A stretch of 28,782 bases of DNA from a virus (Duplodnaviria; Caudoviricetes), in IMG/VR virus record IMGVR_UViG_3300008255_000382, positions 1 to 28,782 of that record; one strand, 5' to 3'. The notes beneath the pieces are model-generated. The model worked only from the letters and a program-made list of their open reading frames with translations, was not told where the DNA came from and did not search any database. A program made the translations under genes and the position numbers. Shown in pieces: positions 430-28,685 of this stretch. How positions within the stretch are numbered: the first letter of the stretch is position 1; every line of letters starts with the position of its first letter.

Positions 430-3400
430 TTAATACCCTTTAATCAACTTTTCAGCGGTTGTTTTATTGATTCTCTCCTCAAGATATGCCTTTGTAGCAC
501 GCTCTTTTACCTCTTCTTTTGACAATCCCTCATCCTTAAATTGCTTTATCTTCTTGGCTATTTGTTGATTCTTCTTCATATTATCCCATTTTGTATCTGC
601 CTGCTTTTCTGTCAACTTCCCTTCTGCCACGGCTTCATCAAGCTCCGCATTTAACTCGCTAAGTTCTTCTTTGGTTAAAACATTTATATATTCTGATGCT
701 GCTTCGTATGGTTCTTTTTTCCCCGGAAGTAATGGTTTTACCGATGCCGGTGTGAATATCCGTTTAGCACTTTCAGGTGCTTTTAACCCTCCTTCATATT
801 TGCCTGATTCTGCATATCGCTCCATAGTAAGGGCTTGTTTTAACATCACAGCGACATCCAAAGCAAAGTCACCTACGCGTGTTTTCACCCATAACGTGGG
901 GTCAAATGCGCCAAATAGAGTCAATGAGTCTCGTATACCTTTGTAAATTACATTTTCCGCAAAACTTCTATTCTTCTTCTTTCCCAACTCCTCGTAATAC
1001 TCACTTGTAAGTGCGTATATTGTGAGCCCTGAAGCGATGGAAAAGAAAAGTTTACCCGCTTCCTTTGACTGTGCTGCTGTAACAAATCCATATTTTACAC
1101 CTCCTGCTTTCGTTGCTTTTGCAGTCAACTTATAGAGGTCTTTTGCATTGCGTATCGTTGCCGTTGCAACAGGGATAGCCCAGCCTTTGTATTGTTTAAA
1201 TGCCTGTGCCTCTCCGGTCTTCCCTATAATTGATTCCATACCTCTAACCTGCCTATATTCAGCCATCTCCAACTGAATATCCGCCAGACGTTTAGTTGTT
1301 ATCTTTCCTGTTTTAAATTCCTCAGCCGTCATCTTACCCAACAAGAAAATCTCATTAGCACTCTTCGTTGCTAAGTGATAAAGAGGGAACATAGTATTGC
1401 GTAATTGACTACCCAGATTCTCCGATGGGTCGGTTAAATCTTTCCAAAAACTACGTCCCACAAAATTCTCATAAGTACTTACGATTTTCTGCCCCTGCTT
1501 ACTCGCTCTCCGTGCTACCGCCTTTGCATAATCTGTTTTCTTTAGCATGGTCAAAGTCATCATATGTTCACCTATTGGTGATATCACTTGTGTTGGAAAA
1601 TTCCATGCAAGATCAAGCGTGCGTGTGACAACTACACCTGCCCTAATTGTTGAATCGACCACACCACCAGGCTCAAACGCCAGCGTCGGCACTCTACCCT
1701 TATTAGTGTTAATCCACTTCTTTACAAATTCTTTTAATTGCGAATCAAGTTCTAATCCTCTAGGTGTTAACCCTTTAGGGCTTAGAACATGGACATAAGC
1801 CATAATTTCAGGAACCAAAGAATCTAAATACCGTGCACGTTCAAGGGTCTTTACATAAACAGAAAATGCCTTTGCTGTGTTTTCAGTTGGCACTAACTTA
1901 CCCGTACGCTTTTGCTCAAATGGTATCCATTTTTCATAAGGTAAAATTTCACCCGTCTGATTATTTAAAATATTCTTCACAGCCTTATTATCTTCAAACT
2001 CTTTACGGGTCTCCTTAAACGCTTTGATCAAACCGTCATCTTTCCAATTTTCCAAAAAGTCCTTTCGGATATGGGGGAAGTATTTATCCTCAAACCGTGA
2101 AAACTTTTTACCTGCTGCATCAATAACCATCTCATCGTAATAAGCACGGTAAACACTATCTTGATAACTTGCAGCGTCCAATTGCTCGGGAGTCATCTTC
2201 TTGCCCAACTCCGCGCGATTATCCACATTTTCTATCCACTCTTTTATTTGTGGATCTTCGGGAATCAACTTATCCAATACGCCCCGTTGGACAGAAGCCC
2301 GTGCCTTGCGTACCAACGCATTATTCTTATCAATCAACTCATATGCGCGTGCATCAGCTTCTAAAAATCCTTCTACCTTACGCCTCACCAATAAATCAAA
2401 GAATGGATTTTGTTTGCTCAATGCATAATCACCCCTAAATCCATCAAACTCACCCATCTCTATTATATTCATTTCAGACAATGGTTTTCCGGTTTTCTTT
2501 GCCAATATTTCAATCACTTCACGGTTCGTTTTAACACCCTTCAAGTCGGTGTTTTTAATCGTCTCCAACATACGCACCGGCAAAAACTCATCCCCCTTAG
2601 CATAAGGTTTCAATGCGTCTTCTAATTGTTGTAGCTGCTTTACTGTCATCTCTTCAATAGGGGGTAGCTTCATAGCCTCCTGCAAATTCTCCCACTTAAT
2701 AAATTCCCTCTCCCTAATAAATGCCTGTACTTGGTTTTTTGCGTCTCTGGTAATTGAAATGTCCGCAGCCTTTGAGTCAACATCCCTTAAAAAAGTTGCA
2801 TATTCTTCCTTTGTCATAGCAGTTAAGTCTTTACCTTGTCTCAATTTCGATAATTCAAAATCAGTAAGATTGTAATGATCTTTTATCGCTGCCAGTTTTT
2901 TACGCCTTGAATCTACAGCGATAGCCATTAAAGCCTCACCCTTTGCAATAGCTCCCCGCTCTTTTCGCACTTCTTTAAGTTTATCCTGCAAGCGTGCCAG
3001 TTTATCCTTTTGCACTAAATATCGTTGGTATGCCTCTCTAGCCTCTTCAGAATCCTTAAACCCTAGTTCTTGCATTTTTTGGTCTCCCATTCTTGCAAAA
3101 TCTCCTTTACCCTTTCCGGTCACTTCAGCCAGCTCACCAGTAGTACGTGACTCATATTTAGAAAGCTCTCGAACGGGGTTAGATTCCACTATTTCCCTCA
3201 TCATTGCCACCTCTATAGAAGCTTCGTAAAATTCTTTTTCTGTGGCGTTCTTATTCTCTATCTTTTTGGCAAGCTCTATAAAATCATCCTCTGTAATGTC
3301 TTTGGTTTTTTTGATTCTTTCTGAAACGGCTTTAAGTGGTGACATTAAATCGACATTCTCTTTTACTCGTTGGGTAATACTTTTAACTTCACCCTTTGGC

Positions 3401-5604
3401 TTAGCCTTCTTGTCTAATTTAGCTCCTGCCTTTCCTTTTCGGGCTTCCACTCTAGTTTCAGCCCTTATTGATTCAATCTCCGCCCTCGTTCTAGCCTCCT
3501 CCGGCAGTCCTCCTTCCCTAAATTTTTCTTTTGTTGATACCTTATCCCACTCTGCTTTTAGTTGGGAGCGGGTTTTAGAAGACTGATATTGGAATGCCCC
3601 CCATTTGTTTAATGACGGTAATTCCTTGAACCCCTCAATAGTTTTTGGATAAAACAAGTCTTCCGCTTTCACAGTGTGCTCATAAACCTTGCCACCATTC
3701 TGTCTCTTAATATCATTGGCGTAATCTTTATCAATAGTTACCCAATCTCCATCATTCAATTCATTTTTTGGAGAAGCTCTATAGATCTTAATGTCTGCTT
3801 CTGGATTAGAGATAATGGATTTCAACTTGTTTACCTCTTTTGATTTTAATGCAGGATAGCCATATTGACGCTTAAACTCATCAACAAAGGAGTTTAATGT
3901 TCCATCGGCAATTTTAGTTATAGGAGAGGTTGTTTTTGAATTAACTTGGTGTGCAGATCTGTAGCTCTGTTCCCCCTGCCCCTTCACCCACTCATCAAAA
4001 GACTGGCCAGAGGCTTTGGCTTTGGAGATTGATTGTTGGAGGTCTGTTTGCGGTAATGGCGCTGGCTTCTCAATACCTGGTCTGCCTTCCCCTGGCTCCT
4101 TCAAATATGCAAACCGCGTATCCCGATACCACGCGTCAAGCTTACGCCCTTCAAAATCCAATTCACGCAACGAATCAAACGAATCAATAACACGGTTTGT
4201 ACTTAGCTGGTTCTCCATTTGCTGTACAAGCTTGCGTGCCTGTACTGCACTAATCACCTTACCAACAACTTGAATTGAGCCACCCAATGCAGCACCCCAT
4301 TTCAAGCTGTTGACAAAATCATTAAAAGTGTATTCCTGCCCGGCGGTTTTCCTGATGATTGCTTCTGCGGTTTCTTCCATCAAATTAAAGGCTGTGAGCT
4401 CTGTAAGTATCGGTGCTTTCTTTTGCGCCCATAAAATGCCCTTAGCGAGCTTGCTAAACCCTTGTGCTACCTTTGAGGTACTTGCTGTTTTTGCCAAAAC
4501 TCCAATGCCTGTTTCAATCAATCCAGCACCGGCAAAATAGGTTGGAGCAGCACCAAGAAAGCGTGAAGCCATATCGCCGGCTTCCTGCACGTTTTGTGCA
4601 GCTGTTGTTAAGTACTCATCACCAATTTCAAAACCTTTGTAATAAAGCTTGCCTCCTTTGGTATAAACGCTCTGTCCAAGATTCGCCAAATCCTCACCGT
4701 CAATAATATCCAGAGTGAGCCCCGATAACATTTTCTTAGGGTCTAGGAAATGTAACGTTGCTTGAGCTACTTCACGACGTGCACGCTCTTCATCACCACC
4801 AATACGTTCAGTTATATCCTTATCAAACGCCTGCACAACTGCACCTAAAAAACCCGATACTCTACGGTTTGATTCATATTCGTTTTCAGCCTTTTTCACC
4901 GCTTCGGGGAACTGATATTTTAAGTCACTATATTGCACAGGCCCATACATAGGCCTTGGAGTGAGCGGCTTTTTACGTGGTTTATACATAAGCGTAATGT
5001 CCGAGTCTAGCTTCTTTCGTACCCACTGCTCTTTTCGCTCCTGCGCGGCAAGTAACGACTCCTCCTGCTCTTGTTGCTGTTGTTTGTAGTAATCCTCCGC
5101 ACCCTGCCTGTTTTTTCCGTACTGGTCTACACCAATTTCGCTAATAATTTGATTATACGTTTTCTGCTCACTAGAAGGAGCGGAAATATAGGTTTGACGG
5201 AAGTTTCTCTTATGTTCCTCGATAAGTTTTGCCTTCTGCTGCTCCACAGGACTAAGCATCTTTTTACCTGGATACCAGATATCCCTAAATTCAGGCCCCA
5301 TTTTTGGCCGTAAATCTACCCCCCCTAAAAATCCGTAAGTCCCGGGGGCACGGCCAAAGCCATTGAATGTACTCAAGGTAGGCTGTACTTGTTGTACGTT
5401 GGCCTGAATACGCGGGTCATTGGTAAGTTTCGGGCGGTTTACCGTAGGTTTTTCGGGGTTAAACAAAGTCAAATTCTTGCTCATCTCATCGACATTCGCG
5501 AGCACTGTTCTTGCCTTTGGATCTTTAGACTTTTCCAAATCGCGCTTCATTTTCTGAAACGCGTTACCTATAGTAAATGCTTCTTGTAAGTAGGGGAGTG
5601 GCAT
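430..5604 (-). CDS. Giant DNA-ejection/internal virion protein (polyvalent-protein-like) with an internal ART-like domain
   Basis: 1724 aa, helical and charged, with Gly/Ala-rich hydrophobic segments at about aa 345-460. Last structural gene, as with T7 gp16/P22 gp16-type ejection proteins. YRA...DWVT...YA motif at about aa 610-635. Confidence 0.7.
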   Translation of the reverse strand: MPLPYLQEAFTIGNAFQKMKRDLEKSKDPKARTVLANVDEMSKNLTLFNPEKPTVNRPKLTNDPRIQANVQQVQPTLSTFNGFGRAPGTYGFLGGVDLRPKMGPEFRDIWYPGKKMLSPVEQQKAKLIEEHKRNFRQTYISAPSSEQKTYNQIISEIGVDQYGKNRQGAEDYYKQQQQEQEESLLAAQERKEQWVRKKLDSDITLMYKPRKKPLTPRPMYGPVQYSDLKYQFPEAVKKAENEYESNRRVSGFLGAVVQAFDKDITERIGGDEERARREVAQATLHFLDPKKMLSGLTLDIIDGEDLANLGQSVYTKGGKLYYKGFEIGDEYLTTAAQNVQEAGDMASRFLGAAPTYFAGAGLIETGIGVLAKTASTSKVAQGFSKLAKGILWAQKKAPILTELTAFNLMEETAEAIIRKTAGQEYTFNDFVNSLKWGAALGGSIQVVGKVISAVQARKLVQQMENQLSTNRVIDSFDSLRELDFEGRKLDAWYRDTRFAYLKEPGEGRPGIEKPAPLPQTDLQQSISKAKASGQSFDEWVKGQGEQSYRSAHQVNSKTTSPITKIADGTLNSFVDEFKRQYGYPALKSKEVNKLKSIISNPEADIKIYRASPKNELNDGDWVTIDKDYANDIKRQNGGKVYEHTVKAEDLFYPKTIEGFKELPSLNKWGAFQYQSSKTRSQLKAEWDKVSTKEKFREGGLPEEARTRAEIESIRAETRVEARKGKAGAKLDKKAKPKGEVKSITQRVKENVDLMSPLKAVSERIKKTKDITEDDFIELAKKIENKNATEKEFYEASIEVAMMREIVESNPVRELSKYESRTTGELAEVTGKGKGDFARMGDQKMQELGFKDSEEAREAYQRYLVQKDKLARLQDKLKEVRKERGAIAKGEALMAIAVDSRRKKLAAIKDHYNLTDFELSKLRQGKDLTAMTKEEYATFLRDVDSKAADISITRDAKNQVQAFIREREFIKWENLQEAMKLPPIEEMTVKQLQQLEDALKPYAKGDEFLPVRMLETIKNTDLKGVKTNREVIEILAKKTGKPLSEMNIIEMGEFDGFRGDYALSKQNPFFDLLVRRKVEGFLEADARAYELIDKNNALVRKARASVQRGVLDKLIPEDPQIKEWIENVDNRAELGKKMTPEQLDAASYQDSVYRAYYDEMVIDAAGKKFSRFEDKYFPHIRKDFLENWKDDGLIKAFKETRKEFEDNKAVKNILNNQTGEILPYEKWIPFEQKRTGKLVPTENTAKAFSVYVKTLERARYLDSLVPEIMAYVHVLSPKGLTPRGLELDSQLKEFVKKWINTNKGRVPTLAFEPGGVVDSTIRAGVVVTRTLDLAWNFPTQVISPIGEHMMTLTMLKKTDYAKAVARRASKQGQKIVSTYENFVGRSFWKDLTDPSENLGSQLRNTMFPLYHLATKSANEIFLLGKMTAEEFKTGKITTKRLADIQLEMAEYRQVRGMESIIGKTGEAQAFKQYKGWAIPVATATIRNAKDLYKLTAKATKAGGVKYGFVTAAQSKEAGKLFFSIASGLTIYALTSEYYEELGKKKNRSFAENVIYKGIRDSLTLFGAFDPTLWVKTRVGDFALDVAVMLKQALTMERYAESGKYEGGLKAPESAKRIFTPASVKPLLPGKKEPYEAASEYINVLTKEELSELNAELDEAVAEGKLTEKQADTKWDNMKKNQQIAKKIKQFKDEGLSKEEVKERATKAYLEERINKTTAEKLIKGY

Positions 5605-5624: not shown

Positions 5625-8015
5625 TTAAATATCCAAATCATCAAGGTCATCTAAACTCCTTCCAGAATTCTTTGGCTCCTTAAAATATAAAGATTTACCC
5701 GTTGCTTTCTGCACTGCTTCATCGAGCTTTTTTAAATAATTTGCTTGTTGTGTGGTGTTAATAATTGTATCTTTCAATGAGGTTATTGCCGATGCACGAT
5801 CAAGCTTTCCGTCCCTAATTTGTTTTGCTAAATTCTGTACCGTATCAGGATATTTAGCCAAATCTTTATCGGTTCCCATTTCGCCAATTTTAGTAGTCGT
5901 GGCTATCCCTGTATCGTCAATTCCAGCCTTGGCTTCCTCCTTTTTAATCCCTCCCGGGTCAATAAGCTTTCCAGCAGAATCTTTAACCTCAATATGTAGG
6001 TGGGAACCATCACCACCTTCACCCTTAATAACATTTCCCGTATTGCCCATAGGTCCCAAAAACTGCCCATTTGAAACCTGATCGCCGACATTAAGTTTCT
6101 CAAGAGAATCAAAATGTGCAAGCCTCCACTGATTACCCTGCGCGTCTTCGATCACGACGGTATTACCCCAACCGCCTTTATTCCCAATTTCGACAATCTT
6201 GCCAGCAACAGGCGCATTTACCGGATCACCGATTGCCCCATCAATATCATAAGCACTATGTGTCTTACGGCCATCTTTGAAATAAGAAACTGGTGTGTTA
6301 AAATCTTGCGTTACTTCGCCACTACCAACTGTGGATGACCAGCCATTGAAATCTGCATTAGTTTGTCCCGCCTGTCCGGGAGGTCCCAAGTATACATTCC
6401 GGTCTTTGTCATAAACCTCCTCTTCACCAGATACAGGATTATAGCGTAGTTCAGTGTTAGTCTTTTGCGCGGTTTCTTTAAATCCTTTACCGATAGTACC
6501 AAGCTCCATAGTTTCAATTGTGCCCGTATCAAAGTTGTAGCGTACCACCGTTACATTTCCGTCTTCATCTTCTTTAACAAGCTCCTTGTTCTCCTTTGCA
6601 GCATTTGCCTCTTTGACCATTTCTATAGTTGACTGGACAAAGTCTTTCGGTAAACCTGACTCTTTGGTAAGCTCCTCCATTCTTTTCTGCACATCCTCTG
6701 AAAGAGTTGACCAGTCCTTATTCGCATAAGTGTTCATTAAAAGATCAAGGTTTGCTCTAGATTCATTAATACTATTCATGCGCTGGGTATCCTTAAAGCT
6801 TTCTGCTGATCTCTTCTCGGCTTCCTGTGCCCTGAACTCTTGCTGTGATCGTAGTTGATTGTCAAAGTTACGCTGTGCAATCTCCTCTGACCGCTGAATA
6901 ATCTGCTGCGATAGCTGATAGCGCATCGTTGCAGTTGATGCATTCACCTCAGCAACCTTGTTATTATACTGGCTAACTGCGTCTGATATACGGTTGTTCT
7001 TATCGACCGTGGCCATCATCTCATCCTTCCTCACCCCCATAATGTACTCTTGTAGTTGAGCATAGTTGTCGAAGATCTTTTCTGATTTCCACTGTTCAAT
7101 TTTCGCAATATCCGTTCCATACGATTGCCGTAAATCGGTGATCTCATTCTGGATTTCCGTATCCGCATTTATGGCATCTTTCTTGAGTTTAACAACGGCA
7201 CGTTCACCCTGCATAATTGTGTCCTCCAAATTCTTATTAGCGGCAACACTTCCAAACCCTCCATACACCATACCAAGCGTGGTCTCCTCGCGAACTTTCC
7301 TTTGCCTATTGAGCAGTTCCTGCTCATCAAGCATGTCCTCATATGCTTCTGATACCTTCTTGCGCTGCAATTCAACATCACGCATGTTCGAATCAAATTG
7401 ATTCTGTACTTCTTGCTTTTGTACATCTGCACTGGAACTGATAATGGAGTCTCGTTTACCAGCAAGCTCCGTTTGTTTCGCCTCCAAATCAGCAAGTAGC
7501 TTTTGCTGTGCTGCAAAATTATCATTCGCTACCTGAATTTGCTGCTCCTGGTTCCTCTCGTAAAAAGGAATCACATTGCCTTGAACATCCTTTTGAAAGT
7601 CACCAAAAGCACCCTCCATCTGTTCTTTCTCTTTTGCTGCATCTATTACAGGCGGCACGCCTACCCCTGGTTGTGCAGGCAATGGTTGCTGTTGAACAGG
7701 CTGAACAGGAGGGGGCGTAACCGCTCCCTGTTGTTTCCGCATTTCGTAATCAAGTATGTGTTGTCCGGTGGGCGTTAAATCCTTTCCACTCTCAACCTTT
7801 GCGGCTACTTTGGAAAAGTTACTGCCCGCTGCTGCTGCTTGTTCTTGGGGGTTAAACTGCCGCGCTCCCAAGGAAGACGGTGCTTTAGGTGGCAGTGCGG
7901 CAACATTCGCTGCTGCAACTTTCACCGGATCATTGGCTTGTGCTTTTTGCATATTCGCAACATTCGCTGCTGCAACTGCTACGGGGTCTGTGGCTTTTTT
8001 GGGTCCTGTTTGCAT
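5625..8015 (-). CDS. Ejection protein with long coiled coil and C-terminal M23 peptidase (virion-associated peptidoglycan hydrolase)
   Basis: Gln/Glu-rich coiled coil. C-terminal HSAYD (HxxxD), GDPVNAPVAGKIV, GWGNTVVI, LAHF, GNTG and HLH are the canonical M23 zinc-site motifs. Confidence 0.85.
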   Translation of the reverse strand: MQTGPKKATDPVAVAAANVANMQKAQANDPVKVAAANVAALPPKAPSSLGARQFNPQEQAAAAGSNFSKVAAKVESGKDLTPTGQHILDYEMRKQQGAVTPPPVQPVQQQPLPAQPGVGVPPVIDAAKEKEQMEGAFGDFQKDVQGNVIPFYERNQEQQIQVANDNFAAQQKLLADLEAKQTELAGKRDSIISSSADVQKQEVQNQFDSNMRDVELQRKKVSEAYEDMLDEQELLNRQRKVREETTLGMVYGGFGSVAANKNLEDTIMQGERAVVKLKKDAINADTEIQNEITDLRQSYGTDIAKIEQWKSEKIFDNYAQLQEYIMGVRKDEMMATVDKNNRISDAVSQYNNKVAEVNASTATMRYQLSQQIIQRSEEIAQRNFDNQLRSQQEFRAQEAEKRSAESFKDTQRMNSINESRANLDLLMNTYANKDWSTLSEDVQKRMEELTKESGLPKDFVQSTIEMVKEANAAKENKELVKEDEDGNVTVVRYNFDTGTIETMELGTIGKGFKETAQKTNTELRYNPVSGEEEVYDKDRNVYLGPPGQAGQTNADFNGWSSTVGSGEVTQDFNTPVSYFKDGRKTHSAYDIDGAIGDPVNAPVAGKIVEIGNKGGWGNTVVIEDAQGNQWRLAHFDSLEKLNVGDQVSNGQFLGPMGNTGNVIKGEGGDGSHLHIEVKDSAGKLIDPGGIKKEEAKAGIDDTGIATTTKIGEMGTDKDLAKYPDTVQNLAKQIRDGKLDRASAITSLKDTIINTTQQANYLKKLDEAVQKATGKSLYFKEPKNSGRSLDDLDDLDI
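7900..7977. repeat. 21-bp exact direct repeat with 57-bp period (DPVxVAAANVA x2)
   Basis: gcaacattcgctgctgcaact at 7900-7920 and 7957-7977. Confidence 0.9.
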
Positions 8016-22485: not shown

Positions 22486-25284
22486 TCACCACTTTGGGAT
22501 TTGTTGTTTTACTTTCAACATCTCTTTCAATTTTTCTTCCTGTGTTTTCTGCGGTTGAACCATAATATTATAATCAAATATGTGTAGGGCTATCGCCAGT
22601 GACATAACTAAATCATCGTAACACCCCTCTTGGGCTTGTGCCTTTCCTTTATCATCATACACAAACGTCATGCACTCCATGATCGTGGCTTCATCGACAA
22701 GCGCGAACTCTCCTTCAATAATCCAGCGTGCGAGCTTGTTGAGTATGAGCTCCCTTGATCTTTCATTGGTGTGAAAGCCTAGCTTCATTTCATATTTTTC
22801 GGTCGTACGATCAACTGAACGTCTACGATATAATCGTGGGTATTGAATCTCTGAATGCAGAATCTTGTTCGTGGTGATTCCGTCCTTGTTGACCTCAATA
22901 CCGATCAGCGCGCAATCCTGCCCGCCTCGATAGAAGTATCCCAATCGTGCCGCAAGATATGCCAGCTTAGTCGGGTCAATCTTCCCATGCCATACAGCCA
23001 CTTGATCGCCTGTGTGCTTGTCAATCACCTGTAAGCATGAGTAGTCACTCCATACCGTGCCCTTGGCGGTATCACCGCCAATAACATAGCTGTGCTTGAT
23101 ACTCGGTAGTTTGTAGAGTTTTAGGCATCCCTTGGCTGATTTAACCAGTTCCGGCTGTTTGATTCCCTCCTTGGTGTCTACGGAGACAAGCTCACCTTGG
23201 AATATTGGCTTAGGTACGTTTTGCCTGTAAAGCTGTAAATTATCGAGATTGAATCGCGGAAGACCGGAAGTAATAAAAGCCTCAATGTCGCAATTATGAA
23301 CTATTATACCGTTTGCAATGAACTCGTGTGAATCGGTAGCAATATCATAAACTTCCTCATTCCCCTTAAACATAACCCCTACCACCTTATCACATAACTC
23401 TAACTTTCTCATTTTAGCCCCCACACCTCTTGGTGTGTTGTTTGACAATGCAATTCTCTCTTTTTTCTTTTGAGAGATAAACCCTAATTCTTTTTTATAC
23501 TGATAAGCCTCAGCCCTCCTAAATATTAACTCATATCCAATATACTCATGCCCACCGCTAGACCTTTTGTTCGCCGTCCTTAGCCTTGCCGTAATGCCAA
23601 ATCCCAACAAAAGAAACTGAACATCCCTTAAAAACTTCTTATATTTAGAAAACAAAACAACCCTATTGCCGTTCCTATCTACAAAACCATCTGCCTCAAA
23701 CAAACCAATTAAGAACTGCCTAATAACATTCTTTGGCGAAAACTTAATAAATGAAGGAACGCAAACCTTTCGCATATATCCACTTGCTCTTTTTCTCACT
23801 ATTCCCATTTCCTTAAAAGCCTTAGTAAATAGCTTGTTAGCCTTCCTAACCTCTACACACCCTTTTTTTGTACCTGTTATTCGAGTGTGATGTCCGCCCA
23901 AATATTTATCAAACAACCTTTCCACCTCATTAACTACTTCTGGACAGGCTCTATCACAAGCCACGCTAACCACTCCATCACCACTAGCAAAACTTCCATC
24001 ACCCATGAATATACCAAGAAACCTTGCGAAATCATTACTAATCTTTATTTCATTTTCAATAAAATTCGTACTATATTTTATTGATTGTTTGTTTGTATTG
24101 AAACTAGGCATACCCAACTGCACAACATCGCCCTCCTTAATATTACTCAACTCTTTAAACCCATTATTCATTAATATCTTATGGTCTAAAGTACAATCAA
24201 CCTCGTACCCCATTTCCGTCTTAATAGTGTACACGTCCTTTTTTCCCTTAAACCAATGCCCTAAAATGCCTCTTTGGTTAGATTGTATATCTTTAATCTT
24301 CATTATTCCATCTAATGTAGCCACCTCTGTATCGCCGCTAACACATGACGGAAACTCTTGACGAAACTTGATCTCGTCACCTCCACACTTATTGGCAATA
24401 CAATACCGCCTCCAATTGAGTTGTGCGTCAGTGAGTGAGTATAAAGTCTTCAACTCCTCCTCTTGTGGCGTAAGGATGAATTCACCAACCACTTCACGAG
24501 AATATTCAGGAAATATCCACCACGGAAGGAAAATAGCTTCAAAATCATTCTTCCCGTTCTTCGCAGCCCAATATGTATCGCAAAAATAACCTCCTATTCC
24601 GTTCGCGGTGGATTCAAGAACGATCATTGTATCGTTATGATCCGGTATCATCTGCATCGCCGCGATCATCAAATCCTCTGCATTCACCCAAAAAGCAACC
24701 TCACTCCCATGAAAGTTCTGGATTGTTCTTGATCTGGCTTCCGTTTTGGACGCTGTCTGCACTTCGATCTGTGAGCCTAATCCTCTCGTCTCTGGATTCA
24801 TTCGCTTCTTTTCGTCAGGATTCTCAAACACTAATTCTTGCCTGTTGGAGTACCGCTTCATCGGTCGAACATCTGCTAATAAATTTTCATAAAAAAACTT
24901 CGCCATCTTGAAAATTGCCTTTGTTGATTCCGGGTCATGAGAAATAATCAGAGAGTTACGATTGAATCGTGTCGCGGTATCGTGAAATATTAGACCTTCC
25001 GTCATTGTAGATATACCCTGCTGTCTTGCCTTGAGAATTACCAGCTTCACAGGTCTACCCTGCGCCTTTATCTGCTTAATTTTTTCATAAACTATTTTTT
25101 GCGTTGAATTAAAAATAAGCGGTAACTCCTTACCCGCTTTATCCTTAATCCGTAGAACCTCCTCACAATACCTTTCAGGGTCAACCAATATATCATCAAT
25201 CTCCTTATCAATCTTCTCCTGTAGCTTTCTTTCTGATTCTTCCTTCGAGAGTGCGCGCGGTGATTTGAATTCGTTCTGGGGCAT
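22486..25284 (-). CDS. terL: Terminase large subunit, intein-containing
   Basis: Walker A KARQQGIST, Walker B FHGSEVAFW, coupling motif ESTANG, and RNase H-like nuclease motifs IGGDTAKG, DYS, IEVN, DDLVMS. Confidence 0.95.
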   Translation of the reverse strand: MPQNEFKSPRALSKEESERKLQEKIDKEIDDILVDPERYCEEVLRIKDKAGKELPLIFNSTQKIVYEKIKQIKAQGRPVKLVILKARQQGISTMTEGLIFHDTATRFNRNSLIISHDPESTKAIFKMAKFFYENLLADVRPMKRYSNRQELVFENPDEKKRMNPETRGLGSQIEVQTASKTEARSRTIQNFHGSEVAFWVNAEDLMIAAMQMIPDHNDTMIVLESTANGIGGYFCDTYWAAKNGKNDFEAIFLPWWIFPEYSREVVGEFILTPQEEELKTLYSLTDAQLNWRRYCIANKCGGDEIKFRQEFPSCVSGDTEVATLDGIMKIKDIQSNQRGILGHWFKGKKDVYTIKTEMGYEVDCTLDHKILMNNGFKELSNIKEGDVVQLGMPSFNTNKQSIKYSTNFIENEIKISNDFARFLGIFMGDGSFASGDGVVSVACDRACPEVVNEVERLFDKYLGGHHTRITGTKKGCVEVRKANKLFTKAFKEMGIVRKRASGYMRKVCVPSFIKFSPKNVIRQFLIGLFEADGFVDRNGNRVVLFSKYKKFLRDVQFLLLGFGITARLRTANKRSSGGHEYIGYELIFRRAEAYQYKKELGFISQKKKERIALSNNTPRGVGAKMRKLELCDKVVGVMFKGNEEVYDIATDSHEFIANGIIVHNCDIEAFITSGLPRFNLDNLQLYRQNVPKPIFQGELVSVDTKEGIKQPELVKSAKGCLKLYKLPSIKHSYVIGGDTAKGTVWSDYSCLQVIDKHTGDQVAVWHGKIDPTKLAYLAARLGYFYRGGQDCALIGIEVNKDGITTNKILHSEIQYPRLYRRRSVDRTTEKYEMKLGFHTNERSRELILNKLARWIIEGEFALVDEATIMECMTFVYDDKGKAQAQEGCYDDLVMSLAIALHIFDYNIMVQPQKTQEEKLKEMLKVKQQIPKW
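23293..24345 (-). mobile_element. Intein (351 aa) with LAGLIDADG homing endonuclease
   Basis: QEFPS|CVSGDTEV (block A), CTLDHKIL (block B), FLGIFMGDGS and FLIGLFEADG (LAGLIDADG motifs), VYDIA..SHEFIANGIIVHN|C (blocks F/G, +1 Cys). Visibly AT-richer than the exteins. Confidence 0.95.
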
Positions 25285-25621: not shown

Positions 25622-25816
25622 TTAAACCAAAAACATAATTTTAGAAACATTTTTGGCCGATAAACCTCTCTCCGTATTCTGCACTTCATATTCAACCATA
25701 TCGCCTTGGTTGGGTAATTCGCCTACTACATTTTTACGATGGAAGAATACATCGGGCGTACCTTCGATGAATCCATAGTTGTTTTCAATCTTATAAGATT
25801 TTACTTTTCCGCGCAT
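25622..25816 (-). CDS. Cold-shock domain protein (CspA family)
   Basis: 64 aa. GKVK, YGFI (RNP1), DVFFH (RNP2), GDMVEYEV and RGLSAKNV. Confidence 0.92.
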   Translation of the reverse strand: MRGKVKSYKIENNYGFIEGTPDVFFHRKNVVGELPNQGDMVEYEVQNTERGLSAKNVSKIMFLV

Positions 25817-26073: not shown

Positions 26074-26203
26074 TTCTTAATTTACGGCATTTTTTAGAGC
26101 AGTATTTGATCTGCTGCTGTGGGTTATTCTTGGCAATATCTTTACCGCAAACGTGGCAAGTCGTAACGCATAATCTTATTGTATTACTTTTTTTTGCCTT
26201 CAC
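26060..26203 (-). CDS. Small zinc-finger protein (C-x2-C...YCS-x2-C)
   Basis: TCHVCGKDI...KYCSKKCR. Start uncertain; a GTG at about 26203, inside the groEL 3' end, is assumed. Confidence 0.5.
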   Translation of the reverse strand: MKAKKSNTIRLCVTTCHVCGKDIAKNNPQQQIKYCSKKCRKLRNDEK

Positions 26204-27812
26204 AAACTGATTCTTCAACTTCGTTGGTAATTGCACATTCAGTAGTGATAAGTGTACCAGCTGCACTGATGGCATTTTCAAGCGAGAGGCGCACAACTCG
26301 ATAAGGGTCAATCACGCCTTGGGGAATCATGGCGACTAGTTCATTCGTCTTCACATCCATTCCATCACCAGAGGCAAGCATTTCCTTCACTACGGTATCA
26401 ATATCCTCAATGCCAGCATTCTCAAGTATCTGTCTCGCAGGCTTCTCACATGCTGCCCTGAGAATTGTAAACGCAACCTGCTCGTCTTTATCTTTGGAAT
26501 TGTTTTTGAGCTTGTTGACGGCACGTAAAAGCGCAAGTCCTCCACCTTCAACGTAACCTTCCTGCAACGTAGCCTTAGCGGCAAAAACAGCGTCTTCTAG
26601 TCTGTACTTGAGTTCCTTTTTGTCAACGTCCGTAGGAGCTGAGTACTTGATTGTTGCAAGCCCTCCACGTAGCGCACTGATTCGAGCGTTGATATTGAGT
26701 ATTTCACTCTCATCACTACTCTTTGCTCGTGTCTCCTCCAAGAAGCTTACGCGTGCGTCAATAGCCTCCTGCTGTCCTGCGGGACACATCACGGTGTGAT
26801 CTTTGTTAGAGTAGACCGACTTAACAGTTCCAAGATCAGCAAGCTTGTGATGGCGTACGTAGTTACCCTTATCGCCATCCACGATCTTTGCGCCGGTAGC
26901 AATCGCCATATCCTCAAGAATATCATCTCTCTTACCTCCGAATGATGGAGGTTGTACCCATATCCACTCAAGCGGACCGCCATTGATAGTGGAATTCTTA
27001 AGTAGGAATTGAATAATCGTAGCGTGTAGAAGCTCTGATACGATCACGAGCTTAGTGCAGTGAATCTTGTTAACTTGTCCTTTCTCGTCCACATCGGCAA
27101 ATTGTCTTGCCAAAGGCAAAAAGTCCGTGAATGAGCTCAATTTGTCCTTGCATAAAAGAACACGTGCGTCATCCATGCTGTATTCCCAGCGCGTGCGTGA
27201 GATAAGACCTTCTTTGAGTCCACAGTCCCACTTGAAGCCGTTTTGACGTTCCACCTTGATCTCATTCCCCAGACCTTCCTCAAAATTCACAGTCGCGTCC
27301 TTCCCAAGGTCGAACATGAGCTTCCCAATCATAGTACCGATCTCTTCATCCTGAGCCGATATTGAAGCGATGTTGACCAATTCCGCTTCTGTTTTTACTT
27401 CCACTCTATTCTTCTTCACCTCGTCGGTGATCTCCCTACCAAGGCGAAGGAGGTGTTTTTTAACATTCACCGGATTAAAATCTTTTTGCGCGAATGCGGC
27501 TTTCACAAGTTCCCGGGCAATGACGATAGATGACGTTGTTCCGTCACCCGCAAGATCATTCGTGCGAAATGAAGCCTGCTTGATAAGTTGGCAACCCATA
27601 TTCTCGAATGGGTCTTTGAGGTTCGCTTCGCGCGCAATGCTAACACCATCGTTTGTTATTTGCGGTTTTTGAAAAATCGTAGACTCAAAAATAACGTTAC
27701 GCCCCTTGGCTCCAAGGGTAACGGCCACTGAGTCGGCCAGCTTGTCGACGCCAGCCATAAGCTTCTTACGTGCTGCGGAGCCATAAAGATATTCTTTGAA
27801 CGGAATTTTCAT
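26184..27812 (-). CDS. groEL: Phage-encoded GroEL-like chaperonin (Cpn60)
   Basis: VAVTLGAKGRNV, ITNDGVSIA, AGDGTTS, RLEDA, GGG.ALL and GVIDP..V motifs; 542 aa; no GGM tail. Confidence 0.95.
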   Translation of the reverse strand: MKIPFKEYLYGSAARKKLMAGVDKLADSVAVTLGAKGRNVIFESTIFQKPQITNDGVSIAREANLKDPFENMGCQLIKQASFRTNDLAGDGTTSSIVIARELVKAAFAQKDFNPVNVKKHLLRLGREITDEVKKNRVEVKTEAELVNIASISAQDEEIGTMIGKLMFDLGKDATVNFEEGLGNEIKVERQNGFKWDCGLKEGLISRTRWEYSMDDARVLLCKDKLSSFTDFLPLARQFADVDEKGQVNKIHCTKLVIVSELLHATIIQFLLKNSTINGGPLEWIWVQPPSFGGKRDDILEDMAIATGAKIVDGDKGNYVRHHKLADLGTVKSVYSNKDHTVMCPAGQQEAIDARVSFLEETRAKSSDESEILNINARISALRGGLATIKYSAPTDVDKKELKYRLEDAVFAAKATLQEGYVEGGGLALLRAVNKLKNNSKDKDEQVAFTILRAACEKPARQILENAGIEDIDTVVKEMLASGDGMDVKTNELVAMIPQGVIDPYRVVRLSLENAISAAGTLITTECAITNEVEESVCEGKKK

Positions 27813-28345: not shown

Positions 28346-28633
28346 CTATTTAACTTGTATCCCCAAGATGTTATCGAGTTCGATATAAATTATTTCATAG
28401 TCTGTTGTACTGATCTTGACCGGGGAGTATCTCGTGAAGTGTATCTGTTTTCCTGGACGAATCCCACGTACCCATTTATTCCAGAATCCGATTTGACCAA
28501 CCTGCAAAATGTCGCCTATGTCGGGATGTGACTCGCGCTTCATCTCTTCCGTAAGTTCAAAACCGCCAGCGTCAGGAACGTGGCGGGATACTACTACTCT
28601 TTTTCCGAAAGGCTTAAAGGTGATTTTTTCCAT
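28346..28633 (-). CDS. groES: GroES-like co-chaperonin (Cpn10)
   Basis: From ATG 28633 (95 aa): FKPFGKRVVV, mobile loop AGGFEL, GDILQVG, IRPGKQIHFTRYS, DNILG. Confidence 0.85.
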   Translation of the reverse strand: MEKITFKPFGKRVVVSRHVPDAGGFELTEEMKRESHPDIGDILQVGQIGFWNKWVRGIRPGKQIHFTRYSPVKISTTDYEIIYIELDNILGIQVK

Positions 28634-28656
28634 AAATTTAATTAAAAATAAACAGG

Positions 28657-28685
28657 AGTATATTACCACAATCACAATTACTCAA
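28657..28685 (-). promoter_or_regulatory. sigma70-type promoter for the groES-HNH-groEL-csp-ter operon
   Basis: TTGAGT(28685-28680)-N17-TATACT(28662-28657), with the -10 box ending 23 nt upstream of the groES ATG. Confidence 0.65.

Follow-up and report, generated by a model that had tools for sequence, protein, structure and literature searches.

Paired peptide brackets around unrelated payload domains in phage polyvalent-type proteins: a predicted split clasp whose coding DNA may serve as homology arms

The cassette described here lies at positions 3538-4044 (minus strand) of a 28,782-nt stretch of DNA, hereafter the window, from the uncultured virus record IMGVR_UViG_3300008255_000382 (Caudoviricetes), and encodes residues 521-689 of a 1724-aa open reading frame (ORF, 430-5604). 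It consists of a left bracket, an inserted payload domain and a right bracket, and its translation (DLQQSISKAKASGQSFDEWVKGQG...IKIYRA...LNDGDWVT...GGKVYEHTVKAEDL...NKWG...KTRSQLKAEWDKV) confirmed the bracket peptides and core motifs that an earlier note on the same DNA had picked out. Such brackets recurred around unrelated domains in many scaffold proteins, with conserved silent sites, chimeric brackets and discordant relationships among payloads, brackets and scaffolds. The preferred reading (probability about 0.63) is that the brackets form a split clasp and that their coding DNA also provides short homology arms for exchanging payloads; the three-helix fold of the clasp is predicted, and exchange through the arms is the step that we infer.

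Brackets recur in pairs around unrelated domains

Left-bracket DNA was searched with degenerate patterns allowing all synonymous codons, which retrieved 20 viral loci with the window's bracket type (dialect A) and 122 loci with a second type (dialect B, consensus KYKSAEEFV ... KTKSQLTDIWN). In the scan for A-left brackets only, 19 of the 20 loci carried an A-right bracket 100-200 codons downstream, around different domains, the 20th being cut by the contig end. A right bracket was detected in 91 of 148 pattern matches, and the 57 dropped were mostly short or cut loci, with a few lacking a clear right end. Because this pairing came out of a left-only scan and the bracket profiles gave no match of at least 8 bits when all 215 collected proteins were reversed, the brackets lie well outside what chance would produce.

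Altogether 173 cassettes were collected, of which 131 were non-redundant (48 A-A, 80 B-B, one A-B, two other; the window's cassette is represented there by L171). Payloads were 53-260 aa long and formed 51 BLAST clusters, eight containing both dialects. Pfam searches on 80 payloads yielded ART-PolyVal (24, with 15 over the cut-off), GNAT (3), ParB-like (3, weak) and SprT-like (1, weak) domains, and about 46 payloads had no Pfam name. The claim of the earlier note, that similar brackets surround unrelated domains in other uncultured-phage proteins, is borne out by these 131 cassettes and 51 payload clusters. By eye, one payload (L044:467-898) displayed a phosphoribosyltransferase-like motif and another (L016) was a plain coiled coil.

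Two or three cassettes were present in 13 loci, in eight of which they stood head to tail, spaced 24-29 codons apart; in mixed arrays, B and A cassettes each retained their own bracket pairs. Since 31 of 131 cassettes finished no more than 10 residues before a stop codon or the end of the locus, the clasp often caps the protein C-terminus. A free ORF of 177 aa (P0066) was almost entirely the window's cassette (92% identical), either an orphan cassette or a fragment. No clasp match was obtained in the cultured-phage collection. The cassette was also considered as an intein and rejected, as the bracket consensus lacked splicing residues (N-terminal Cys/Ser, C-terminal His-Asn) and no intein (HINT) profile matched the cassette, although the window's terminase scored one.

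The cassette site varied among scaffold homologues, of which 63 were retrieved with residues 700-1650 of the 1724-aa protein. When these and the window's protein were scored, 11 of 64 had both brackets, 10 had one (several of these have both by eye) and 43 had none, scattered over the core tree. The homologue alignment proposed in the earlier note revealed presence, replacement and absence at the same site in scaffolds 58-69% identical: P0010 had a ParB-like payload, P0009 a clasp enclosing about 22 residues, and P0012 no brackets. The window's payload core matched none of the 63 homologues at E ≤ 1e-5, one of which (P0047) held a distant payload relative by eye. The payload core was 72-83% identical in ten long proteins without BLAST match to the window's C-terminal scaffold, and this scaffold was matched by only two of 150 payload relatives. 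Five homologues (P0017, P0022, P0030, P0039, P0041) carried a zeta-toxin-like domain (PF06414) in the variable region, without brackets. In P0038, P0052 and P0055 (about aa 330-520), a second clasp-like repeat, unsplit, occurred downstream of the bracket site and is possibly the ancestral contiguous form.

Bracket DNA is conserved at silent sites and carries probable traces of exchange

Silent sites were analyzed in 124 of the 131 cassettes, over 774 A pairs and 2559 B pairs, all between unrelated payloads; these samples are related and do not represent independent trials. Synonymous-codon identity of the brackets was 0.87 (A) and 0.67 (B), against 0.47 and 0.50 expected by chance, and that of homologous payloads of 40-80% identity was 0.46-0.52. 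Fixation was position-specific and favored rare codons, GAG being used in 75/76 and 75/78 cases at two Glu codons and in 12/74 at a third. An internal Shine-Dalgarno sequence with a GTG start behind the fixed GAG GAG was examined as a candidate and discarded, given that the Val codon was less fixed than the Glu codons and that 24 gene starts lacked a Shine-Dalgarno-like motif at the usual spacing (by eye).

The window's left-bracket DNA was 89-97% identical over 60-65 nt to four loci whose payloads were different or just distantly related. Six loci matched its payload DNA at 76-79% identity, in alignments that stopped in or near the brackets; three of these loci were shown to have B brackets. 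The same payload was found inside A and B brackets at 86, 80, 71 and 68% identity, and cassettes 90-95% identical were embedded within unrelated flanks (L201/L207, L223/L212). Payloads, brackets and scaffolds had discordant nearest relatives. Three brackets were clean chimeras: L242 passed from A to B inside the left bracket, while L020 and L251 displayed reciprocal switches at the 8-mer TCCCAACT in the right bracket. The earlier note had proposed a structural clasp or a recombination anchor; recurrence, the same payload across dialects and the chimeras mark exchange points, and the brackets appear to be clasp and anchor both.

Position-specific fixation of rare codons would also suit paired sequence-specific recombination sites for a dedicated host or helper enzyme acting in trans, that is, an in-frame integron-like pool in which the helices are incidental to the sites. 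Under such a scheme, the sharp outer ends of the cassettes (in all 41 A and 71 B cassettes, the best-partner DNA match outside the left anchor did not exceed 70 nt), the reciprocal crossovers at a single 8-mer and the head-to-tail arrays with 24-29 codon spacing (8 of 13 multi-cassette loci) would be expected. It is rather unlikely, since carrier genomes shared no cis recombinase or reverse transcriptase, no att-like hairpin or symmetry was present, the dialects have only short cores in common, the peptides are predicted as a well-packed domain and the left-bracket chimera L242 crosses elsewhere. Membership in an integron, shufflon or diversity-generating retroelement was likewise rejected, with no linked tyrosine recombinase (PF00589 in 6/40 carrier genomes) or reverse transcriptase (PF00078 in 0/40; 25 of the 40 genomes at least 90% complete) and no conserved hairpin site.

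Another possibility is that left and right bracket DNA or RNA base-pair, looping the payload out for excision, template switching or skipping. Dialect A is able to form left-right helices of 8 and 6 bp, duplex energies beat codon-usage nulls (mean z -2.6 for A, -1.5 for B), and one silent-site pair covaries in B (T-A 50, C-G 14, T-G 12 of 79). However, GC-matched nulls brought z to -1.4 and -0.6, own pairs were no better than permuted pairs (p 0.07-0.78), the covarying pair lay outside any helix, B had no shared register, and the whole cassette folded at z 0.33 without left-right pairing. Bracket hairpins and left-right pairing were rejected on the GC-matched nulls, the permuted pairs and the whole-cassette fold, which largely refute this explanation and make it highly improbable.

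The brackets are predicted to pack as one three-helix bundle

The AlphaFold model of the cassette had a pLDDT of 87.7, about 90 across both brackets, with a low-confidence link at 27-29. Many VIA-align rows covered model residues 1-169 with only 36-45 residues aligned on continuous three-helix domains at 1.6-2 Å (e.g., 1tc3_C 210-246, Z 3.3, rmsd 1.7, 36 aligned), so that in the model the two ends must pack as one bundle. A natural near-empty clasp of 46 aa (L111) folded alone in its model (pLDDT 86) and matched some targets of the cassette model (6e6q_A, Z 4.3, rmsd 2.0, 44 aligned). Both brackets are thereby predicted to form one three-helix bundle, with and without payload, in agreement with the structural clasp of the earlier note. 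No VIA-align row reached Z ≥ 5 for the cassette or the L111 model, by which neither a new fold nor a different fold is shown. Helix-turn-helix rows had Z values of 3.2-3.9 for the cassette model, and the isolated clasp fitted generic three-helix bundles equally (Z ≤ 4.3); as all Z values were at most 4.4, the modeled bundle appears generic and carries no implication of DNA binding. Pfam, NCBIfam and PDB sequence searches with cassette, clasp and scaffold returned nothing usable.

Confident three-helix models would equally be obtained if the clasp acted at the protein level alone, by assisting folding or by serving as a handle in packaging, in ejection or for a host partner. The similarity of the bracket DNA would then reflect nothing more than the recent spread of two bracket lineages, and payloads would enter by illegitimate recombination and be filtered by selection. 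Strict left-right dialect pairing suits co-evolving contact surfaces, near-empty clasps (L111, P0009) persist, and dialect A looks young and uniform. This explanation is nevertheless unlikely: silent conservation was uneven inside one bracket and contrary to the local A/T codon bias, payloads with a common bracket were saturated at silent sites, and 51 payload clusters would demand very many independent in-frame captures.

The payload belongs to a Glu-less ART-like subfamily

The earlier note had likened the payload core to the ADP-ribosyltransferase (ART) domain ART-PolyVal. This label was rejected, as the payload had no PF18760 match (E ≤ 0.1, E ≤ 0.01) while 24 of 80 sibling payloads did, and displayed an invariant Arg (IYRA) followed by DWVT rather than the H-Y-D active-site set given for the ART family in passages on phage polyvalent proteins (PMC5512222). 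The payload belongs to phrog_2579, a 'ParB C-terminal domain' family of mycobacteriophages (E 3e-12), with 27-38% identity in 31 cultured-phage records; the clasp, by contrast, was unmatched in that collection. Further relatives were predicted in viral proteins labeled LPD, MuF or minor capsid. Residues H32, R89, N97, D100, Y108 and A109 were invariant in 45 payload sequences and T103 was kept in at least 90% of them, R89 and T103 both on predicted strands. These would correspond to the Arg of strand 1 and the Thr of strand 2 in the R-S/T-E clade of ARTs.

ART-fold proteins recurred among the best structured matches of two programs, all below significance. Weak rows included CNFy D4, a KptA-like complex with ADP-ribose, TreX, ExoS and ART2.2, with 6yhn_A (Z 4.4, rmsd 2.5, 76 aligned), 9ld3_A (Z 3.7, rmsd 2.9, 66 aligned) and 8s2m_B (Z 3.5, rmsd 2.5, 67 aligned) in VIA-align. 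Foldseek ranked ExoS at E 0.32 and ART2.2 at E 0.46, with ART-like matches spanning E 0.3-1.9 and no PDB match at E ≤ 0.001. The ART fold suggested earlier is therefore weakly supported (Z 3.5-4.4, Foldseek E 0.3-1.9).

Among 150 payload relatives, 51 kept NE[FW]GY, 76 (the window's included) had a different, conserved end without this Glu, 13 fell outside these types or were cut, and the core pattern was missing from 10. The earlier note was right that the expected catalytic Glu is missing, while its suggestion of an inactive domain does not follow, the absence marking a conserved subfamily (76/150). The payload would thus be a member of a Glu-less, R/T-type ART-like subfamily, with its fold weakly supported. 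The invariant His, Arg, Asp and Tyr argue that function is kept. Most likely the payload binds nicotinamide adenine dinucleotide (NAD) or ADP-ribose, or transfers it independently of Glu, on a host defense target; this is the weakest step of the argument. KptA is active without Glu. Like the payload, R-S-E clade ARTs and Glu-variant folds (TreX, PMC11606950; CNFy D4, PMC7883292; ExoS, ART2.2 and KptA) pair an Arg on the first strand with a Thr on the second, their matches to the payload being weak; unlike R-S-E ARTs, the payload has no equivalent of the Glu retained in 51 of its 150 relatives. Passages on CNFy domain D4 indicate that such a fold may have no detectable activity (PMC7883292). 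In the conflict between phage and host, the Glu-less subfamily is a well-delimited place to look for new NAD biochemistry.

A candidate mechanism for payload exchange

In the reading of a split clasp with homology arms, the two brackets would be halves of a small split three-helix domain holding the ends of the inserted payload together, and any domain with termini close together could be grafted into the clasp loop with the scaffold undisturbed. Short-homology recombination between co-infecting phages, at the left arm (about 45-50 nt), the right arm (about 35-40 nt) or 8-11 nt cores common to the dialects, would swap payloads and build tandem arrays. Arms drifting from the consensus would lose access to the pool, which would keep silent sites fixed, and the payload would arrive in the host cytoplasm with the phage DNA. 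The bracket pair provides a search handle whose contents are candidate injected effectors with exact domain boundaries, and a 40-residue split clasp tolerating inserts of about 10 to 260 residues could serve as a grafting scaffold.

Several points weigh against this reading. Exchange is deduced from sequence traces and not from direct observation, the clean chimeras number three, and the entry of brackets into a new scaffold is left unexplained. Silent sites inside the core were partly loose (GCG 41/77) beside fixed neighbors, which simple homogenization does not predict. Cassettes do not count as independent samples: many A-A pairs were fetched with a query bearing both A brackets, which inflates their number, and 46 (or 24) scaffold components among 95 overstate independence, scaffolds being only partly in view. 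Most scaffold homologues (43/64) were scored as bracket-free, and every structural Z value stayed below 5 (at most 4.4). At strict thresholds, only 10 of the 76 Glu-less payload relatives and 12 of the 51 Glu-bearing ones had both brackets; the payload needs no clasp and, most of its relatives being bracket-free, the clasp is a vehicle and not part of the payload domain. Recombination genes were scarce in carrier genomes, with ERF in 2/25, Rad52/Sak in 0/25 and the integrase and reverse transcriptase counts given above, RecT and Sak4 not having been searched.

A wider version is doubtful. It would see a community-wide, in-frame effector-cassette system in which standard DNA ends encode a self-assembling clasp and are read by a dedicated recombination activity supplied in trans. 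Injected enzymes could then be traded, integron-like within a gene, among unrelated phages of Patescibacteria-like hosts, even between different genetic codes.

Comparison with known systems

Phage polyvalent proteins, as described by Iyer et al. (2017, PMC5512222), are large products of late genes that mix effector domains (ART, ParB, GNAT, peptidase), and injection was proposed for them. Large size, a late-gene setting and variable effector domains are also features of the window's protein, which has 1724 aa, is encoded among late and virion genes, and has homologues carrying PF18760, PF06414, PF13489 and PF05838 (on polyvalent proteins, see also PMC9503650); the ART family of the 2017 description is of the H-Y-D type, unlike the window's payload. 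In passages of the founding paper, LPD38 is given as phage-specific, polymorphic toxins are mentioned, and a Verrucomicrobium locus prompts the single suggestion of possible cassette recombination (PMC5512222). Its main text has no whole-word 'linker' or 'repeat', and the passages compared contain no bracket pair, split domain or exchange arms, though its supplements could list the bracket as an LPD. The brackets offer a testable mechanism for domain gain and shuffling in polyvalent proteins, which that description left open.

In domain movement (DoMo) of Type I and III restriction-modification genes, as outlined in passages of the source, a variable domain is swapped between non-orthologous genes by recombination at flanking stretches of 8-117 bp that are similar and encode conserved motifs (Furuta and Kobayashi 2012, PMC3467074; see also PMC3077401). 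The bracket arms are likewise similar flanking DNA that encodes conserved motifs at exchange points. DoMo flanks, in contrast, belong to an enzyme that stays constant and always enclose a recognition domain, whereas here the flanks form a mobile split mini-domain in many scaffolds, cargoes have unrelated folds and arrays occur; the brackets were patchy on the scaffold tree and enclosed 51 payload clusters. The bracket system may be viewed as working like restriction-modification domain movement inside polyvalent proteins, the new elements being that the arms are a mobile split domain and the cargoes unrelated folds. Literature searches retrieved no description of it, most subscription papers being outside their scope.

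T-even adhesins reportedly exchange at conserved motifs, as Tetart and colleagues are said to have found in 1998, and polymorphic toxins undergo cassette exchange. In both, conserved motif DNA provides crossover points that change a specificity module of the phage or toxin, as is proposed here; their exchange is one-sided or within one family, whereas the brackets delimit a two-sided internal slot common to unrelated genes. Looser parallels are offered by PMC13277306 and 10.1101/2025.07.23.666291.

Gene context and composition

Features of the locus are listed in Table 1.

Table 1. Annotated features of the cassette, its gene and the adjacent gene in the window.
Feature	Position	Strand	Basis
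Scaffold protein, 1724 aa, likely internal virion (ejection) polyvalent protein	430..5604	-	ORF; 63 homologues via C-terminal part; last late gene, after M23-peptidase protein
Left bracket, dialect A, aa 521-544, helices 1 and 2 of predicted clasp	3973..4044	-	Model helices 2-11 and 16-23, pLDDT ~90
Left-bracket DNA core, every base at least ~80-90% conserved among 45 dialect-A cassettes	3976..4008	-	
Payload, aa 545-676, ART-like alpha/beta domain, phrog_2579 'ParB C-terminal' family, Glu-less subfamily	3577..3972	-	phrog_2579 E 3e-12; weak structural rows
Right bracket, dialect A, aa 677-689, helix 3 of predicted clasp	3538..3576	-	Model helix 156-168; conserved codons
8-mer TCCCAACT, in both dialects; crossover point of reciprocal chimeras L020, L251	3560..3567	-	Sequence
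Conserved helical C-terminal scaffold core, ~aa 896-1630, LPD38/LPD39-like by language-model features	715..2919	-	Homologues; ESM features 0.95-0.96; no Pfam match
Neighboring 796-aa protein with M23 peptidase, likely second ejection protein	5625..8015	-	PF01551 E 3e-19, aa 585-687

The 1724-aa gene was the last of a late operon that also encoded terminase, portal-like, virion structural (phrog_3287) and M23-peptidase proteins on one strand. The end of the late operon is the usual position of podovirus ejection proteins. From this position and LPD-like features only, the 1724-aa protein is probably packaged and injected with the DNA; the roles in ejection, host takeover and anti-defense put forward in the earlier note likewise follow from gene context and keep the standing of an inference. 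By ESM features, the scaffold core scored 0.95-0.96 against clusters whose members include LPD38 (63%) and LPD39 (28%). The scaffold profile had no PDB relatives, and peptide patterns of the scaffold C-terminus found none in viral contigs. Low-complexity linkers flanked the cassette on both sides, and the conserved helical core began about 220 aa downstream.

The payload had a GC content of 36.8% against 42.0% for the gene; among 1289 overlapping windows of 399 nt taken from elsewhere in the gene, only 1.2% were lower. The 5' and 3' flanks were at 46% and 40% GC, so that the contrast was chiefly with the 5' flank, and GC at third codon positions was 0.34 in both payload and downstream linker. 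The AT-richer DNA noted earlier by eye thus holds for the payload, modestly and mostly against the 5' flank, but not for the brackets, which were GC-rich (left 52%, right 46%).

Hosts, genetic codes and neighboring genes

The B-left pattern was found in 19 genome contigs, eight in Patescibacteria bins and one in a Woesearchaeota bin, all of them metagenome bins that may hold mis-binned phage. Gene starts in the window had no Shine-Dalgarno motifs, the upstream DNA being G-poor and A/C/T-rich. Patescibacteria are a likely host of the window's phage. A prophage check on a capsid-like protein in five binned genomes (1/5) was uninformative. Six payload relatives (P0079, P0080, P0081, P0082, P0132, P0141) had Trp at a conserved Gly, and P0079 also had Arg at a conserved Trp. 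Trp-for-Gly is a signature of hosts reading TGA as Gly, and reassignment of Arg codons is known too. From these substitutions, the six relatives likely come from recoded hosts, and the cassette therefore seems to cross genetic codes.

Elsewhere in the window, the terminase large subunit (22486-25284, minus strand) contained an intein with a LAGLIDADG endonuclease (PF14890 at aa 329-664, PF14528). The phage also encoded GroEL (PF00118, E 2e-46) and, by eye, a GroES-like ORF (26184-27812 and 28346-28675, minus strand), with a NUMOD4-HNH endonuclease gene between them, and a cold-shock-like ORF was seen by eye at 25622-25816.

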